DNA from: a virus | Lineage: Duplodnaviria > Heunggongvirae > Uroviricota > Caudoviricetes | Strand: one strand, 5' to 3' | DNA: 43,367 nucleotides | IMG/VR virus record: IMGVR_UViG_2579778784_000007 | Coordinates: 1 to 43,367 of that record | Shown: positions 1,419 through 43,367 of the stretch, piece after piece | Layout of the letters: every line of letters begins with the position of its first letter | Numbering within the stretch: position 1 is the stretch's first letter | Program-made: the position numbers and the translations under genes | Notes under the pieces: generated by a model | Database searches by the model: none | What the model saw: only the letters and a program-made list of their open reading frames with translations | Told to the model about the DNA's origin: nothing

Positions 1419-2489
1419 TTATTTGATTTCAATTTTGTCCCACTCCCTGCCTCTGTCATCACGATACTGTGATGCCATGGTGTCCGACTTATGCCCGAGA
1501 AGATGTTGAGCAAACTTATCGCTTATCTGCTTCTCATAGAGTCTTGCAGACAAACTGCGCAACTCGTGAAAGGTAGGCGGATCCCCTTCGAAGGAAAGAC
1601 CTGATGCTTTTCGTGCGCGCATAAAATACCTTGATACTGTGCCGGATGAAAGCGGTTCACGACGAGTAGATGCAATTATGGTTTCTCCGCCAAGAATCTC
1701 TTTGCATTTATCAAGTGTTTCCTTCATTGATATCCCGAGAGCATCAACATGCAATGTTGTAGGGATGGCAATTTTTACGCCCGTTTTGCTTTGCTCGACA
1801 TAAAGATATCCATCTACGATATCAGACCACTTCATTTCGCATAAATCACCAACTCGCTGCCCGGTAACAACAGCCAGTTCCATTGCAAGTCTTAGCCAAC
1901 ATGGTGATGATTCTGCTGCTTGATAAATTTTCAGGTATTCGTCAGCCGTAAGCCTTGATCTCCTTACCTCTGATTTTGCTGCGCGAGTGGCAGCGACCGG
2001 GTTTGTTGTTATATGGCCTTCAGCTATTGCCTCTCGGAATGCATCGCTCAGTGTTGATCTGATTAACTTGGCTGATGCCGCCTTGCCCTCGTCTATGTAT
2101 CCATTGAGCATTGCCGCAATTTCTTTTGTGGTGATGTCTTCAAGTGGAGCATCAGGCAGACCCCTCCTTATTGCTTTAATTTTGCTCATGTAATTTATGA
2201 GTGTCTTCTGCTTGATTCCTCTGCTGGCGAGTATTTTTTCGTAGCGATCAAGCCATGAATGTAACGTAACAGAATTATCACTGTTGATTCTTGCTGTCAG
2301 AGGCTTGTGTTTGTGTCCTGAGAATAACTCAATGTTTGCCTGTATTGCTTCAGTAATTGCTATCCTCCTGTCTCTGCCTAATCCGAACTCTTTACCCGTC
2401 CTTGGGTCCCTGTAGCAGTAATATCCATTGTTTCTTATATAAAGGTTAGGGGGTAAATCCCGGCGCTCATGACTTCGCCTTCTTCCCAT
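1419..2489 (-). CDS. int: Integrase (tyrosine recombinase), lambda Int
   Basis: 356-aa translation MGRRRSHERRDLPPNLYIRNNGYYCYRDPRTGKEF... matches my recollection of lambda Int essentially along its whole length; adjacent to attL P' arm. Confidence 0.97.
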   Translation of the reverse strand: MGRRRSHERRDLPPNLYIRNNGYYCYRDPRTGKEFGLGRDRRIAITEAIQANIELFSGHKHKPLTARINSDNSVTLHSWLDRYEKILASRGIKQKTLINYMSKIKAIRRGLPDAPLEDITTKEIAAMLNGYIDEGKAASAKLIRSTLSDAFREAIAEGHITTNPVAATRAAKSEVRRSRLTADEYLKIYQAAESSPCWLRLAMELAVVTGQRVGDLCEMKWSDIVDGYLYVEQSKTGVKIAIPTTLHVDALGISMKETLDKCKEILGGETIIASTRREPLSSGTVSRYFMRARKASGLSFEGDPPTFHELRSLSARLYEKQISDKFAQHLLGHKSDTMASQYRDDRGREWDKIEIK

Positions 2490-35874: not shown

Positions 35875-35931
35875 ATAATTAACTCTCCTTAGTTTTGTGC
35901 ATGACGAAATTAACCAGCCATCAGGCTGGTA

Positions 35932-36114
35932 TTAGTCACATTCTATTTCTTTTGTCGACGTCCATACATAAGGGTCTGAGCAAACAACCTCTCCATTTAT
36001 CATGACGTCATAGCCCATTAGATATGAGTTACCACCAACAATCTGAGCGGCGATGACGCTAATGCTGGCGGCGCAGGCTGCACCAAAAACGAAACCAATT
36101 AATATATTTTTCAT
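35932..36114 (-). CDS. Small predicted membrane/secreted protein (60 aa)
   Basis: N-terminal hydrophobic segment [23 protein letters not shown]; immediately upstream of the lipoprotein gene on the same strand; weak SD. Confidence 0.45.
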
Positions 36115-36145
36115 TTTGATTCCAAATAGTTATAGGATGAAAGTT

Positions 36146-36331
36146 ATGACCATAGAAGAACGCCTGAACAACATTGAGTTGAATCAAACCCTGCTTGACC
36201 AGCGACTTTCAGATCTTGAGCTTAAAGATTTGGATGCGCAAATATTAGAAGCAGAGGCCAAGCTCTCCAGCTTAAACCACCGCAAGAAGCAAATCCGCAA
36301 CAGAATTACTCAGGGACGCGGAAGCTGTTGA
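36146..36331 (+). CDS. Hypothetical coiled-coil protein (61 aa)
   Basis: ATG 36146 with AGGA 8 nt upstream; overlaps by 26 bp the 3' end of the minus-strand ORF 36306..36515, so one of the two may be spurious. Confidence 0.3.
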   Translation: MTIEERLNNIELNQTLLDQRLSDLELKDLDAQILEAEAKLSSLNHRKKQIRNRITQGRGSC

Positions 36332-36515
36332 GGTGGGATGCTAGGTCTCTATCGTTAAAATCAAGGCTGCTAATCATTTCATTGTAAATAGCGTTTTTAT
36401 CTTCCATTGGCAGTCTTGAGTAAACCAGACACAGAGCATATTTCAGGGAGTTTAGCTCTTTCTCTAGCTCTTCCTTGCTTGATGTTTTTGACTTAATAAA
36501 CTGTTTTTTATTCAT
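36306..36515 (-). CDS. Hypothetical protein downstream of mnt
   Basis: 69-aa ORF coupled (ATGA-type) to the Mnt-like gene. Confidence 0.4.
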   Translation of the reverse strand: MNKKQFIKSKTSSKEELEKELNSLKYALCLVYSRLPMEDKNAIYNEMISSLDFNDRDLASHLNSFRVPE

Positions 36516-36748
36516 TTTGCATCCTTACCATACATGGTTTTCAGTGTTTCAATCAGCGCATCCCTGAATTTGTCAGCCTCTTTCTGAGCAAATTCATTGC
36601 TATTAAGCGATCTACCACAAACAGCATCTTCGATAATCTGTATTATTTCAGCATTCATGGAACGCTTGTTATGTTGCGCCCTGGCTTTAACCTTTGCCTT
36701 TAACTCTTTGGAAATCCTGATATTTATTTGCGGCTCTTCGCGTGACAT
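36512..36748 (-). CDS. mnt: Mnt-like ribbon-helix-helix repressor
   Basis: EPQINIRISKELKAKVKARAQHNKRSMNAEIIQIIEDAV parallels P22 Mnt DPHFNFRMPMEVREKLKFRAEANGRSMNSELLQIVQDAL; divergent from arc-ant. Confidence 0.75.
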   Translation of the reverse strand: MSREEPQINIRISKELKAKVKARAQHNKRSMNAEIIQIIEDAVCGRSLNSNEFAQKEADKFRDALIETLKTMYGKDAK

Positions 36749-36801
36749 ACCACCTCCATAGCATTTTGGTGATATTACTATTGCATCACTGCGATTACAA
36801 T

Positions 36802-36818
36802 GGTATAACGGTTATACC
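36802..36818. promoter_or_regulatory. 17-bp perfect palindromic operator between mnt and arc
   Basis: GGTATAACgGTTATACC in the 88-bp divergent intergenic region. Confidence 0.6.
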
Positions 36819-36836
36819 AAATTGATTGGAGGTAAT

Positions 36837-37010
36837 ATGATAGTCAAGTCAGACGCACCAAAGTACCCTTTGCGCATCCCATTAGAGGTTAAGTTAGCAA
36901 TCGAGAAGTCAGCGAAAGAAAATGGTCGCTCAATAAATACCGAGATGGTAATGCGGTTAGTGGATAGTTTAAGGCGGGATAGTTCTAAAGGTAATCTAGC
37001 AAAAAGTTGA
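36837..37010 (+). CDS. arc: Arc-like ribbon-helix-helix repressor
   Basis: 57 aa from ATG 36837 (GGAGG SD); PKYPLRIPLEVKLAIEKSAKENGRSINTEMVMRLV parallels P22 Arc PQFNLRWPREVLDLVRKVAEENGRSVNSEIYQRVM. Confidence 0.75.
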   Translation: MIVKSDAPKYPLRIPLEVKLAIEKSAKENGRSINTEMVMRLVDSLRRDSSKGNLAKS

Positions 37011-37072
37011 AGCCCCAACTGCGGTAACAGTCAGGGCTTCGTTATCAACAAATCGGCTTAGGAAATATTGAC

Positions 37073-37951
37073 ATGAAAAGTATAGCAAAGGCACAAAACG
37101 ATTTCACCATCTTCAAATTCGGCGACAGTGAAATCCGCGTCATCAACAAGTGCGGTGAGCCGTGGTTTGTAGCTAAAGATGTTTGTGATGCTTTAGCTTT
37201 GACTAACTCACGCAAGGCGCTTACTGCACTTGATGACGATGAAAAGGGAGTAACTTTAAGTTACACCCTTGGTGGTGAGCAGAATCTAAGCATTGTTAGC
37301 GAATCAGGTATGTATACATTGGTTCTGCGCTGCCGCGATGCTGTCAATAAAGGTTCGGTCCCGCACAAATTCCGCAAGTGGGTAACAGCAGAAGTTCTAC
37401 CTTCAATTCGCAAACATGGCGAGTATGTGAAAGGCAAGAAAACCACTGTTGAGGAAAGAACGCCGCTACGCGATGCAGTAAACATGCTGGTAGGAAAGAA
37501 AGGACTTCGCTATGACGATGCATACAATATGGTTCATCAGCGTTTTGGTATTGACAGCATTGATGAACTTTCAATTGAACAAATCCCGCTTGCCGTAGAG
37601 TACATCCACAGGGTAGTGCTTGAAGGTGAGTTCATTGGCAAACAAGAGAAGAAGACCAACGAGCTTTCTGCAAAAGAAGCAAACAGTCTTGTATGGTTAT
37701 GGGATTATGCCAACCGTTCACAGGCATTATTCCGCGAACTGTATCCGGCATTAAAACAAATTCAATCGAACTATTCCGGCAGATGCTACGACTACGGTCA
37801 TGAATTCTCGTATGTTATCGGAATGGCGAGAGACGTTTTAATAAACCACACACGAGATGTTGATATTAATGAGCCAGACGGACCAGCGAATCTTTCCGCA
37901 TGGATGAGACTTAAGAATAAAGAATTACCTCCTTCAGTACATAACTACTGA
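37073..37951 (+). CDS. ant: Antirepressor Ant (Bro-N domain)
   Basis: 292 aa; N-terminal Bro-N-like domain ([28 protein letters not shown]...); downstream of arc as in P22 immI. Confidence 0.82.
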
Positions 37952-37970
37952 CAGATAACCAACGCAACGA

Positions 37971-37993
37971 CCCAGCTTCGGCTGGGTTTTTTT
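37971..37993 (+). terminator. Intrinsic terminator after ant
   Basis: CCCAGC-ttcg-GCTGGG followed by TTTTTTT. Confidence 0.65.
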
Positions 37994-38061
37994 ATGCCCA
38001 AAATTCACCGTAGCCACGCTGCGGCGATTCCTTGTATCTGGAGCAAATTAAATGACAGACA

Positions 38062-38562
38062 TTACCTACTCAACAGATGGTCAGCAACCATGTTTGCTGC
38101 CTTATAAGCTATAGCCGCTTCATCAATGGTGTTGAATCTCCCAAGGGTTATGTTTTTACCTGAGACATTTATCTGAGCTTGCCATTGATTTCTGGCTTGA
38201 CAGAAAGTTACCCCCTTGATTCCAGCATTGCTATTTCGAGGTCCGACATTTAATGCATTTACGACTCTGCTGACATCCCTAAGGTTTGAGATTGCGTTAT
38301 TTCTTCTGTTTCTATCAATGTGGTCAATCTCTTGTTTGGGCCATTCGCCATATACATACAGCCAGGCAAGTCTATGTGCAAAATATCTTACGCCATCAAT
38401 ATTAATTGCGTTATATCCATAAGAAATTGTGCCAGCAACTTTCCCAACAGCACCTCTGGCGCTTAATTTCTTTTTCCAAGTGAAAATTCCTGTTTCTTTA
38501 TTGTAATCGAGAACCTCCATAAGGCGCTCCCGAGTTACTACCTCGTGACGTCTCTTACTCAT
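38062..38562 (-). CDS. HNH homing endonuclease with AP2-like domain (copy 2)
   Basis: 166 aa from ATG 38562 (GGAG SD; ORF-track start 38604); HNH motif [19 protein letters not shown]; [13 protein letters not shown] segment parallels copy 1; encoded antisense at the tailspike 5' end. Confidence 0.7.
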
Positions 38563-38575
38563 TATTTTCTCCGGA

Positions 38576-41059
38576 ATGTTTATTATGCCAGAACAATTAT
38601 ACAACGTAGTTGTTTCACAACCAAGTCAGTTATTTACTTTAGCTCGCTCGTTTAAAGCAAATGCCAATGGCAAAATTTATATCGGTAAAATTGACACTGA
38701 CCCGGTAAATCCAGAAAACCAGATTCAGGTTTATGTAGAGAACGAAGACGGCTCTCACGTTCCTGTTTCGCAACCAATCATCATTAACGCTGCCGGATAT
38801 CCGGTATATAACGGACAGATTGCCAAATTCGTTACCGTGCAAGGCCATTCTATGGCTGTTTATGATGCGTATGGTGCGCAGCAGTTTTATTTTCCCAATG
38901 TGCTGAAGTATGACCCCGATCAGCTACGGCAGCAATTAGAAGATCCAGATGGCGCTAAAAAATATCCTGAGTTGCAGATAGCACGATGGAGAGATTGTGG
39001 AGATGTTAGAGGTTGGGGAGCAAAAATAGATGGGGTAACAGATGATTCAGATGCTTTTATTAAAGCTTTAAACTCTGGAAGGTCGGTTATAACAATTCCT
39101 GAAGGAATATGCATCATCAAGAAGAATATTAACATTCCTGAAGGGTGTTCACTGGTTGGATCTGGCATTGATTATTGGGATACATATAGACCAGCGCCTG
39201 AAAGATTATTAAAAAGTTGGAGTAAAGGAACCCATCTTGTATTTACTGGTGATGGAGAAAAAAACAAATATTTTTTTAACATCTCTAATGAAAGACCGGT
39301 TAAAATTGTTGAAGGGATATCTTGTAAGTTCACTGAGTTTACGAATGAAGATTCTGTAGGTGTTACTCCTGCTACACCAAAAGCCATGAGCGTAGCTGTT
39401 AGTATCAACAGGGCATCACAGTTACGCAATCTGAGAATAATGGTAAGTAAAAATGGTATTGAAGGATACAATAACCCTGATTCTTATTCATTGGGTGATA
39501 ACTGGGATATAGGGTTGCATGTATACGATAGCTGTGATTCAGTTATTGATAACGTACAGATTGTCGGCTATTGGAGGGTAAAAGGACTACTACTGACAGA
39601 AAATGACGGGAGCCTTTCAATGAAGGGAAATCCTGAAAAAACGCACTTTAATAACGTTTATGTACAGTCAGGAATCGCGATAAGGAATAGCCCTCAGATT
39701 GATCTTGTAAGTAATACTGAAAGCTCAGTGACATTTAAACATAAAAAGTCGATGAGAATAACTTCAGTTAAACAGTTTAAAATTGCTGGCAGTGAATCAG
39801 TATATACGTATTCAGATGCATCATTTGATGGAACTAATATCACACTATCTGGTATTTCTCCTGAAATACAAGGTTCAATAAGTGTAATCAGGTTTCCGTC
39901 AATTGGTAATAATTTTAGTGGGACTGTTTTTGAGAATACAGTAGCCACTACTCTTGATCATACATCAGGTAAGCCATCAGAATACTTTGGCCTTCCTGCA
40001 TCCTTTGCATTAGAGATTGATGGTTTCCCTGTTCGTAATTTAAGGCTTGATAAATTCAAAGCTCAAACTACCTTTGATAAAGGAAATTGCATTTTTGGTG
40101 ATTGCCGTGATGTTAAAATCACATCATCTGAGTTTGAAAATGGAATTATGATTGCGTATAACCTGACCGAGACTCAGGGTTATACAGGAAATCTTAGATT
40201 TTTTGCTTCTGATCTTCAGAGCAGCGTTAACACAAGCGAGTTTAAACCAAGAGACGCATTTGTAGACAATAGACAAATAAAAACGGAGTTTACTGATGGT
40301 TCTTTCATTATAAAGAACTGGAGGCCTACAGATACAAAAATACAATGGTCGTCTGGAGTGGATGCTATTGTTCTTAGAGAGTCACCTGACGAACAATCAA
40401 ACGGAAATATTTACGGGTATCACATTGATGGTAAAAGATGGATTAATGTTAGTGGATATAACAAAGATATAAATATTTCATCAAGAAACTTAAGCGTAAA
40501 AAACCATAGTGATGACTCCGCAGTTATTAATATATTCGGCGACTCTGGAAATATTGCCATTAAAGGTAATTTTTCACCAATTGTTGATAACAGCAAATCT
40601 CTTGGTGCACCATCATTTAGATGGGCTCAGATTTATTCTGCATCTGGGACTATAAGCACATCAGATGAAACACTTAAAACAATATATGACATTACTCAGG
40701 CAGAGCGTGATGCTGCGCTGGAAATAAAGGGAATTATATGCAAGTTCAGGTTTAATGAGTCGATTAATTTTAAAGGATTGGAGTTATCAAGGTATCATTT
40801 TGGAGTTGGCGCTCAAACCGTAGGGGATATTCTTAGAAAGCATGGTTTAAACCCTGAGCAATATGCTTTTTGGTGTTACGATGAATGGCCAGACGTATGG
40901 GATGAAGAGGTGATAACTGAAGAGAGCACAGATCCTGATACAGGTGAGAAAATTTATTCTCAATATAAAACAGGAAATATGATTCTTGTAAAAAAAGCAG
41001 GTGGACGCTACGGAATTCGTTATGACGAATTGGCTATGTTTATATTAATGGCAATGTAG
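38576..41059 (+). CDS. Tailspike: P22 gp9-like N-terminal head-binding domain, divergent central receptor-binding domain, C-terminal intramolecular chaperone (S74-like) domain
   Basis: N-terminus [53 protein letters not shown]...[12 protein letters not shown]...VLKYDPDQ aligns with P22 gp9 residues ~7..120; C-terminal ~130 aa resemble the auto-cleaving chaperone domain of endosialidase/K5 lyase/T5 fibre, with an S-x4-K dyad at SDETLK (Ser codon 40661..40663). Confidence 0.88.
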
Positions 41060-41078
41060 TTGCAATAAATGCAGTATA

Positions 41079-41107
41079 TCCCGCATGAAAACTGCGGGAT
41101 TGTTTTT
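41079..41107 (+). terminator. Intrinsic terminator after the tailspike gene
   Basis: TCCCGCA-tgaaaac-TGCGGGA followed by TTGTTTTTA. Confidence 0.6.
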
Positions 41108-41358
41108 ATCTAGTGTATTTGTGAGTTTTAAATAAAATTTGGTATGGATTCTTGCATCGTAGTGAACGCAGGATTACCTATGAAACAAAACTGAGACACA
41201 CAAAGCTTTGCACTGGATTGCAAGGCTTTGTGTCATTCGATAGTTAAGGTGGATCACTCCACCTTTTCATCAAGACAATCCGCCCACCACTGCATCATGT
41301 CTCTGCGATTATCGAGATACTGAGCATGGTTGTAAATTCAACTAACCCAGTGAGTTGG

Positions 41359-41546: not shown

Positions 41547-41561
41547 GCTTTTTTATACTAA
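41547..41561. other. attR: attR core (O)
   Basis: GCTTTTTTATACTAA followed by bacterial B' arm CTTGAGCGAAACGGGAAGG; identical core to attL. Confidence 0.92.
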
Positions 41562-42236: not shown

Positions 42237-43367
42237 ATGAAACGCGCATATAAATACCGGTTTTACCCGACAACTGAGCAGGCTGAGCTTTTAGCTCAGA
42301 CGTTTGGCTGTGTGCGCTTCGTCTACAATTCCATCCTTCGTTGGCGTACCGATGCGTACTACGAGCGAAAAGAAAAGATCGGTTATCTACAGGCCAACGC
42401 TCGCCTTACGGCGCTCAAAAAAGAGCCTGAATACATATGGCTGAATGATGTTTCCTGCGTTCCCCTCCAGCAGTCGTTGCGCCACCAACAAGCCGCCTTT
42501 GCTAACTTCTTTGCTGGACGAGTTGCATATCCGGCTTTCAAAAGCAAACGGCACAAACAGGTGGCTGAGTTCACTGCCAGCGCGTTTAAACACCGTGACG
42601 GCGAGTTGTATATAGCAAAGAGCAAGTCGCCGCTGGATGTTCGCTGGAGTCGAGAATTACCATCTGCGCCGTCAACCGTTACCATTTCCAGAGATAGCGC
42701 TGGCAGGTACTTTGTTTCCTGCCTGTGTGAGTTTGAACCTGTATCAATGCCTGTTACCGCTAAAACGGTCGGCATTGATGTGGGCTTAAAAGATTTATTC
42801 GTCACCGATACCGGATTCAAAACCGACAATCCCCGCCACACCGCTAAATATGCGAAGCGATTAACGCTGCTACAGCGACGTTTAAGCAGGAAGCAAAAAG
42901 GCTCAAGAAACCGTATTAAAGCCCGCTTAAAGGTCGCCCGACTCCACGCGAAAATCGCCGATTGCCGGATGGACAATCTGCACAAGTTGTCCCGCAAACT
43001 GATTAACGAAAACCAAGTTGTTTGCGTCGAATCCCTCAAGGTGAAAAACATGATCCGCAACCCGAAGCTGTCTAAAGCAATAGCTGACGCAGGCTGGAGC
43101 GAACTTGTTCGCCAGCTCCAGTACAAAGGCAAATGGGCCGGGCGGTCAGTGGTCGCCATTGACCAGTATTTACCGTCCTCAAAATGCTGTAGTTGCTGCG
43201 GTTTCACCATGCAAAAAATGCCTCTTAATGTTCGTAAATGGCACTGCCCTGAATGCGGCGCAGACCATGATCGCGACATTAACGCGGCACGTAATATTAA
43301 AGCTGCCGGGCTGGCAGTGTTAGCCCACGGAGAGCCTGTAAACCCTGAATCGCAGCACGCGGCTTAG
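42237..43367 (+). CDS. tnpB: TnpB (IS200/IS605-family RuvC-like, RNA-guided nuclease type)
   Basis: 376 aa ending at the window edge with TAG; RuvC-like motifs (GIDVGLKDL; VCVESLKVKNM; HDRDINAARNI) and zinc finger CCSCC...HCPECG; no tnpA in window. Confidence 0.85.
   Translation: MKRAYKYRFYPTTEQAELLAQTFGCVRFVYNSILRWRTDAYYERKEKIGYLQANARLTALKKEPEYIWLNDVSCVPLQQSLRHQQAAFANFFAGRVAYPAFKSKRHKQVAEFTASAFKHRDGELYIAKSKSPLDVRWSRELPSAPSTVTISRDSAGRYFVSCLCEFEPVSMPVTAKTVGIDVGLKDLFVTDTGFKTDNPRHTAKYAKRLTLLQRRLSRKQKGSRNRIKARLKVARLHAKIADCRMDNLHKLSRKLINENQVVCVESLKVKNMIRNPKLSKAIADAGWSELVRQLQYKGKWAGRSVVAIDQYLPSSKCCSCCGFTMQKMPLNVRKWHCPECGADHDRDINAARNIKAAGLAVLAHGEPVNPESQHAA

Follow-up and report, generated by a model that had tools for sequence, protein, structure and literature searches.

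A P22-type prophage tailspike whose central β-helix tracks a probable K14 capsule locus in Escherichia coli

Is a tailspike built on the P22 plan directed against the O antigen, or can its target be the capsule? The question is raised by an uninterrupted open reading frame (ORF) of 827 amino acids (aa) plus stop, which the ORF list and its translation place at 38576..41059 on the plus strand of the virus record IMGVR_UViG_2579778784_000007 (positions 1 to 43,367; this whole stretch is referred to below as the window). It encodes the receptor-binding tailspike of a temperate, P22-like phage that is integrated at the attachment site of lambda. An initial annotation had left its glycan specificity open and suggested that it could define the serotype range of the host. 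As an O-serotype range, this is not what the host genomes show; rather, the central domain of the protein follows the K (capsule) locus, most likely that of K14. The target is most likely the group-2 K14 capsule, which contains 3-deoxy-D-manno-oct-2-ulosonic acid (Kdo), rather than the O antigen. Taken together, the evidence makes it reasonably probable that the protein is a capsule-specific spike that docks in the P22 manner, that would be matured by its own chaperone and then cleave itself, and whose β-helix would strip the K14 capsule. Residue numbers follow the 827-residue ORF throughout.

Distribution of the central domain among Escherichia coli genomes

The gene was compared with phage genomes and with 5426 complete E. 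coli genomes. Carriers were scored together by joining the central block (gene nucleotides (nt) 600-2080) to a marker gene and counting the places per record, and the place counts were consistent in all three joined searches. The central domain is present in 29 of the 5426 genomes, inside a P22-type spike in 20 of these and inside another protein in 9. The kps region-2 glycosyltransferase gene of the group-2 capsule locus of strain 04-00955 is found in 28 of the 29 carriers, compared with 108 of the 5426 genomes overall. For the domain against this gene, the Fisher test gives an odds ratio of 1861 (p=1.5e-48), a value that is uncorrected for phylogeny.

The O types of the same carriers vary. 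The O2/O50 wzy gene is present in 2 of the 29 and the O15 wzy gene in 3, O83 clusters were directly read in 2 more, and there are other types besides. This spread, obtained from annotated O clusters and from the joined-query scoring, led to the rejection of O-antigen specificity. It is consequently very unlikely that the spike is an O-antigen endoglycosidase like those of P22, Sf6 and HK620 and sets an O-serogroup host range, even though its N-terminal domain, its β-helix fold class and the position of its gene are the same as in those phages, and even though strain 04-00955, which is 99.3% identical to the window over the prophage end and the host flank, is an O2/O50 (and K14-type) strain. 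P22-like prophages with the domain lie at three sites, namely att-lambda (04-00955 and the window), beside sbcB (M160133) and argW (E50), and in ECONIH2 a prophage of a non-P22 type, near yfgI, bears the central domain; none of the four sites is linked to kps. The carrier hosts are independent. Because the O types vary while the kps gene is shared, and because the integration sites and prophage types are several, the capsule, and not the O antigen, is the most likely target.

Several points weigh against this reading. The association test ignores phylogeny, and there are clones among the 29 carriers (E50/E67/E20/E57 and the CREC/CRKP set). GF43, which has the domain (NZ_CP172127.1 5035262-5036728), is the only carrier without a megablast match to the region-2 gene, and 80 K14-type genomes are without the domain. 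In addition, a prophage is a record of past, not present, susceptibility. The first of these points also speaks for hitch-hiking, in which the prophages and the K14 locus would merely be found together in a small number of successful lineages, the receptor being another glycan, e.g., colanic acid, enterobacterial common antigen or the lipopolysaccharide core: the test is blind to shared ancestry, and several of the hosts are clonal. Colanic acid (wca) genes are present in all 4 hosts in which the O region was read (complete in 04-00955, the 3' end only in the other 3), and PHROG 8280, 'colanic acid degradation', matches residues 10-371 of the spike. With the domain found at several sites and in more than one type of prophage, we regard hitch-hiking as rather unlikely. 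A colanidase was also considered and rejected, since the PHROG 8280 match includes the head-binding domain, which is shared, and in the helix extends no further than the first part, and the phi92 colanidase is a generic fold match only.

The capsule locus itself was read in 04-00955, where the stretch from kpsM to kpsF is 13,933 bp. Its region 2 consists of three genes, which encode a GalE-like epimerase, a 760-aa protein with a GT2 domain (3-271) and a KpsC/KpsS-like Capsule_synth domain (429-570), and a hexapeptide acetyltransferase. As judged from these predicted products, region 2 would suit a hexose- or hexosamine-Kdo polymer bearing O-acetyl groups. The K14 polysaccharide was reportedly described by Jann et al. 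in 1983 as an N-acetylgalactosamine-Kdo repeat, partly O-acetylated. β-Pyranose Kdo is part of K14. The region-2 gene of strain JJ1886 is 97.3% identical, and the JJ1886 locus appears to be K14 according to the legend of Fig. 2 in PMC10866875, if strains and types are paired by their sequence in the list. In kTYPr, the reference cluster for K14 measures 13,918 bp and encodes a K14_8 protein of 761 residues with a GT-A domain at the N-terminus (1-227). The 04-00955 protein and K14_8 have different MD5 checksums, which yields no exact identification and indicates that the two alleles are not identical; papers on strains EC17GD31 and 04-00955 state no K type. That the K14 identity depends on one figure legend and on the lengths of a locus and a protein must be counted against it; we hold it to be highly probable that the locus is K14.

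Two incidental features of the genomes may be recorded here. The central block is present in two copies in four of them (ECE170, Combat2C1, OZ040490 and E57). In L005 (O15_8X), the genes from potCD to flgKL at 2715000-2765000 are inverted and lie ~1 Mb off their expected place, so a large chromosomal inversion is indicated in this assembly.

Domains of the tailspike and their predicted maturation

The receptor-binding, presumed depolymerase domain comprises residues ~143-655 (39002..40540, plus strand) and has the fold of a right-handed parallel β-helix, the pectate-lyase-like class of phage depolymerases. In the AlphaFold 2 model, the mean predicted local distance difference test (pLDDT) score is 83 and the central part exceeds 90. 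The suggestion that the center lacks a sialidase fold is borne out by this model, which gives a β-helix and not the six-bladed β-propeller with Asp-box motifs of GH58 endosialidases. Past residue ~143, a phmmer search of the PDB gives no sequence match to the catalytic domains of P22, Sf6 or HK620. Thus, the statement that this part is unrelated to the P22 endorhamnosidase is correct for sequence but not for fold class, which is identical. Its description as unassigned also needs amendment, given that residues 144-199 match Pfam PF12708 above the cut-off and residues 123-827 are spanned by PHROG 1171, 'tail spike protein' (E=5e-199).

The fold matches of the β-helix are generic, with 10-16% identity, which counts against the proposed activity because at this level a hydrolase, a lyase and a purely binding domain look alike. 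A β-helix that binds or de-acetylates a glycan and leaves the backbone uncut is quite unlikely, however, since, among phage spikes of this fold whose structures have been solved, the majority are depolymerases and since the acidic residues Asp308, Asp311, Glu480, Asp501, Asp512 and Glu521, which are candidates for a catalytic role, are nearly invariant among the 58 homologues compared. A hydrolase is tentatively favored over a lyase, as phage enzymes that act on Kdo-containing K antigens have been described as glycanases. Identity with the K5 lyase/ElmA was considered for its similar length and its chaperone, and was rejected because there is no sequence match to KflA and region 2 of the hosts differs. 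Whether the β-helix is a gene-identified K14 depolymerase, possibly a Kdo-glycanase, carried on a cassette that moves among P22-like and other temperate podophage-like prophages of invasive extraintestinal pathogenic E. coli (ExPEC), is in our judgment evenly balanced.

At the N-terminus, residues 4-116 (38585..38923, plus strand) constitute a head-binding, i.e., virion-attachment, domain. It matches the Pfam family Head_binding (PF09008) over profile positions 1-113 of 113 with E=1.9e-64 (215.4 bits against a cut-off of 24), and phmmer searches of the PDB return Sf6 gp14 (7sg7, E=7e-61) and P22 gp9 (E ~1e-47). The assignment of the first ~115 residues to the P22 gp9 type is therefore well founded. 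In the Foldseek rows for 7sg7, the domain is 82-87% identical to that of Sf6 gp14; identity to P22 gp9 is roughly 60-75%. It is followed by a helical linker or neck, residues 117-165 (38924..39070, plus strand), for which the model has helices at 114-140. The linker is 71-84% identical to that of the clusters P0072, P0073, P0086, P0094 and P0096, whose N-terminus is PF18668 or has none assigned, and the segment also matches PDB 9vvr_A. Because tailspikes with other N-terminal adaptors have this linker too, it is likely to represent a recombination boundary.

Between the β-helix and the chaperone lies the pre-cleavage stalk, residues 654-695 (40535..40660, plus strand), presumed to be an intertwined triple β-helix in the trimer. 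It aligns with the stalks that precede the cleavage site in T5 pb1 and endoNF, and it is here that the endosialidase profile End_tail_spike (PF12219) matches, over only positions 119-160 of its 160 and at 20.9 bits, below the cut-off of 25. The low pLDDT of the monomer model at residues 677-693 would be expected if the stalk folds only in the trimer.

The final 132 residues, 696-827 (40661..41056, plus strand), form an intramolecular chaperone domain of the S74 self-cleaving type. In phmmer searches, residues ~660-827 match the chaperone structures of Kp7 gp51 (7y5s, 1.9e-15), T5 pb1 (4uw8, 5.6e-12), AS12 gp42 (6eu4, 1.4e-10) and endoNF (3gw6, 6.4e-10), as well as a neck appendage domain of a Bacillus phage (3gud, 7e-6). 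The resemblance of the last ~130 residues to the endosialidase and T5 chaperones, which the initial annotation had proposed, is confirmed by this profile check, that is, through matches to solved members of the group. A point on the other side is the Pfam Peptidase_S74 score of 21.4 bits, 0.6 bit below the cut-off of 22; PF13884 is present in most homologues. The model of the domain has pLDDT values of 80-95 and a helix/hairpin topology, and Foldseek matches it to 3gw6 and 4uw8.

The residues needed for cleavage are all in place. The SDETLK motif does begin at residue 696, with the serine codon at 40661-40663 as the initial annotation had it, and its Ser/Lys dyad aligns with known dyads. The segment around Ser696 aligns with GTINTSDARLK in Kp7 gp51 and with GTINTADARLK in the T5 S1264A protein, so that Ser696 falls on the Ser-to-Ala position of the uncleavable mutants 4uw8 (S1264A) and 3gw6 (endoNF S911A). 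Lys701 (codon 40676-40678), Arg682 (40619-40621), Asp671 (40586-40588) and Thr695 (40658-40660), the last three of which lie within the stalk, align with T5 Lys1269, Arg1250, Asp1239 and Thr1263, respectively. The Ser696/Lys701 spacing of 5 residues is that of endoNF Ser911/Lys916. Arg682 lies 14 residues upstream of Ser696 and pairs with the endoNF arginine found at the same distance before the mutated serine (the Arg897 position); with Asp671 25 residues upstream, the full catalytic set is present. Ser696, Asp697 and Lys701 are each retained by at least 90% of the 58 homologues. Work on T5 reports that the Thr1263-Ser1264 bond is cut, that Lys1269 activates the serine, and that Arg1250 of the adjacent chain together with Asp1239 serves as folding sensor and oxyanion site; the endoNF counterparts are Ser911, Lys916 and Arg897. 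The alignment predicts by analogy that the Thr695-Ser696 bond would be cut. Because the T5 cut lies N-terminal to the serine, the fragment freed would be 132 aa (696-827), one residue longer than the ~131 aa first proposed; the predicted release itself is consistent with the conserved cleavage residues.

These features suggest how the spike might mature and act. By likeness to homologous tailspikes, three chains would trimerise, and the 132-residue C-terminal chaperone would nucleate the folding of the stalk and the β-helix. Once the stalk has folded, Arg682 from the neighboring chain and Asp671 would form the oxyanion site; Lys701 would then activate Ser696, and cutting of the Thr695-Ser696 bond would free residues 696-827. 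The mature spike of ~690 residues would use its N-terminal domain, of the P22/Sf6 type, to dock on the tail hub, and its β-helix would bind, and probably hydrolyse, the surface polysaccharide, giving the virion access to the outer membrane.

Exchange of modules and known systems

The gene is a mosaic of segments with different nearest relatives. Gene nt 1-350 are 98.9% identical to phage Kapi1, and gene nt 58-446 are ~90% identical to many P22-like spikes, CUS-3 among them. The central block (gene nt 588-2092) matches, at 97.7-97.9% identity, a gene for a 'tail fiber domain-containing protein' of another prophage type as well as Phi05_1387 B. Finally, gene nt 2083-2484 share ~90% identity with the chaperone ends found in spikes that are otherwise unrelated. 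On its right side, the central block has its junction at nt 2092 (codon 697/698; nt 2083-2092, window ~40658-40667), which falls on the predicted Thr695-Ser696 cleavage site. Because the block ends at this site and the DNA downstream is ~90% identical in unrelated spikes, the chaperone domain seems to be swapped as a separate cassette. Homologues with 40-70% protein identity have at least five types of N-terminus (PF09008, PF18668, PF12236, PF03906 and PF12571), and one homologue belongs to the phi92-like myophage SD2, where its gene adjoins several other annotated fibre/spike genes. Lytic phages thus have homologues at 57-70% identity (Justusliebigvirus SD2 and contigs of the clusters P0007 and P0009-P0025), and the domain also occurs in P0006, a cluster of 654 members.

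The three-part architecture is already known, and CUS-3, a prophage of E. coli K1, is the K1 counterpart of the phage described here. Like it, CUS-3 is temperate and has a P22-type tailspike N-terminus, with ~85% identity over residues 4-166. Its record annotates an endosialidase tailspike, which indicates that this spike, too, targets a group-2 capsule and not the O antigen; its target is K1, and the one inferred here is K14. Elsewhere, the CUS-3 record has another match, which fits a shared C-terminal chaperone of the S74 type; the CUS-3 spike ends in such a domain, and the CUS-3 virion is P22-like. The two spikes differ in their centers: that of CUS-3 is a sialidase β-propeller, whereas the present one is a β-helix, and the endosialidase profile is matched only over its last 42 positions, in the stalk. 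Furthermore, no capsule-modifying gene adjoins the spike gene of the window, while CUS-3 carries an O-acetyltransferase.

Sf6 gp14 and P22 gp9 share with this spike not only the head-binding domain but also the β-helix fold class and the gene position, after the immI region. They are O-antigen endorhamnosidases, however, and have C-terminal trimerisation domains of their own without S74 or self-cleavage. For the C-terminal part the relatives are T5 pb1 (4uw8), endoNF (3gw6) and Kp7 gp51 (7y5s), which have in common the sequence GTI(S/N)T-SDxxLK, the Ser/Lys dyad, Arg at -14, Asp at -25 and a released domain of ~130 residues at the extreme C-terminus, as predicted here. The receptor-binding parts of T5 pb1 (a bullet domain) and endoNF (a sialidase) are unrelated, and chaperone identity is modest. 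The K5 lyases KflA/ElmA are capsule-specific with a β-helix catalytic domain, as is proposed for the present spike; an S74-type chaperone homologue has been reported in ElmA, and T5 pb1 and the GA-1 neck appendage gp12 share it.

Prophage setting and meaning of the capsule association

The true start of the gene is probably the ATG at 38585 (Met4), which would give an 824-aa product. This start is favored because the RefSeq coding sequences (CDSs), the cluster P0001 and the Sf6 alignment all begin at the second ATG: RefSeq has a 2475-nt CDS of the same gene, named 'phage tailspike protein', in 04-00955 and E50; P0001, the nearest database cluster, has 824 residues, and its alignment begins at query residue 4; and the conserved NVV motif falls at its Sf6 gp14 position if counting starts at Met4. 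The RefSeq name 'phage tailspike' and PHROG 1171 thus already cover the gene. Beginning 19 nt past the stop codon, a hairpin resembling an intrinsic terminator (41078..41110, plus strand) has an 8-bp stem with 5 GC pairs, followed by TGTTTTTATC.

The lambda att core, GCTTTTTTATACTAA, has two exact copies in the window, where 0 are expected. The right copy (attR) is at 41547..41561 on the plus strand and the left copy at 1331-1345. Because the core lies downstream of the tailspike gene and is repeated at 1331-1345, this gene is placed by the sequence as the final one of a prophage of ~40.2 kb. On its left the prophage adjoins a Pectinesterase-family ORF, on its right a PBP/PEBP-family ORF (ybhB in the 04-00955 annotation), and in this intergenic site it carries, although P22-like, a lambda-type integrase gene (1419-2489, minus strand) with Arm-DNA-bind_1 and Phage_integrase domains. 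The ORFs for terminase, portal, scaffold, capsid, gp4, gp10 and needle (1416, 2199, 894, 1254, 462, 1419 and 954 nt) have the sizes of those in the 04-00955 prophage. The tail hub set of gp4 family (462 nt), gp10 (1419 nt) and needle (954 nt) is among them, matched to 04-00955 by order and size alone. Beyond ybhB, an IS200/IS605-family TnpB (InsQ) gene (42237-43367, plus strand) is cut by the end of the window; it lies between ybhB and bioA, as it does in 04-00955.

Upstream of the tailspike gene are encoded an Arc-family (Mnt-like) repressor, Arc and Ant (Bro-N plus P22_AR_C). A gene for an endonuclease with HNH_3 and AP2 domains (38062-38562, minus strand) separates ant from the tailspike start; its likely ATG, preceded by GGAG, is ~13-22 nt away from the tailspike ATGs. 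The window diverges from the 04-00955 prophage at 35901-38633, and from 38633 on identity is 99.3%. From this pattern, the immI region looks like one that was replaced in an event associated with a homing endonuclease.

In full-text literature searches, no phage enzyme specific for E. coli K14 came up. To our knowledge, phage enzymes that cut Kdo polymers have so far been known biochemically only. K14 is one of the four or five commonest E. coli capsule types, and in cohorts of bloodstream infections its estimated invasive potential ranked second (PMC13171598, PMC13171606). Because it ranks in this way among the commonest and most invasive ExPEC capsules, the spike is of moderate practical interest. 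If the proposed activity is real, the protein would provide a K14-specific reagent and a sequence handle on the phage enzymes that cut Kdo polymers. As a domain that tracks the K14 locus, it would be a candidate capsule-stripping therapeutic or typing reagent and a marker with which to predict phage host range from genomes. It would also be a worked example of how simple co-occurrence can assign prophage tailspikes to K rather than O types. Finally, the coincidence of the recombination junction with the predicted self-cleavage site indicates that the receptor-binding and chaperone cassettes of such spikes are exchanged independently.

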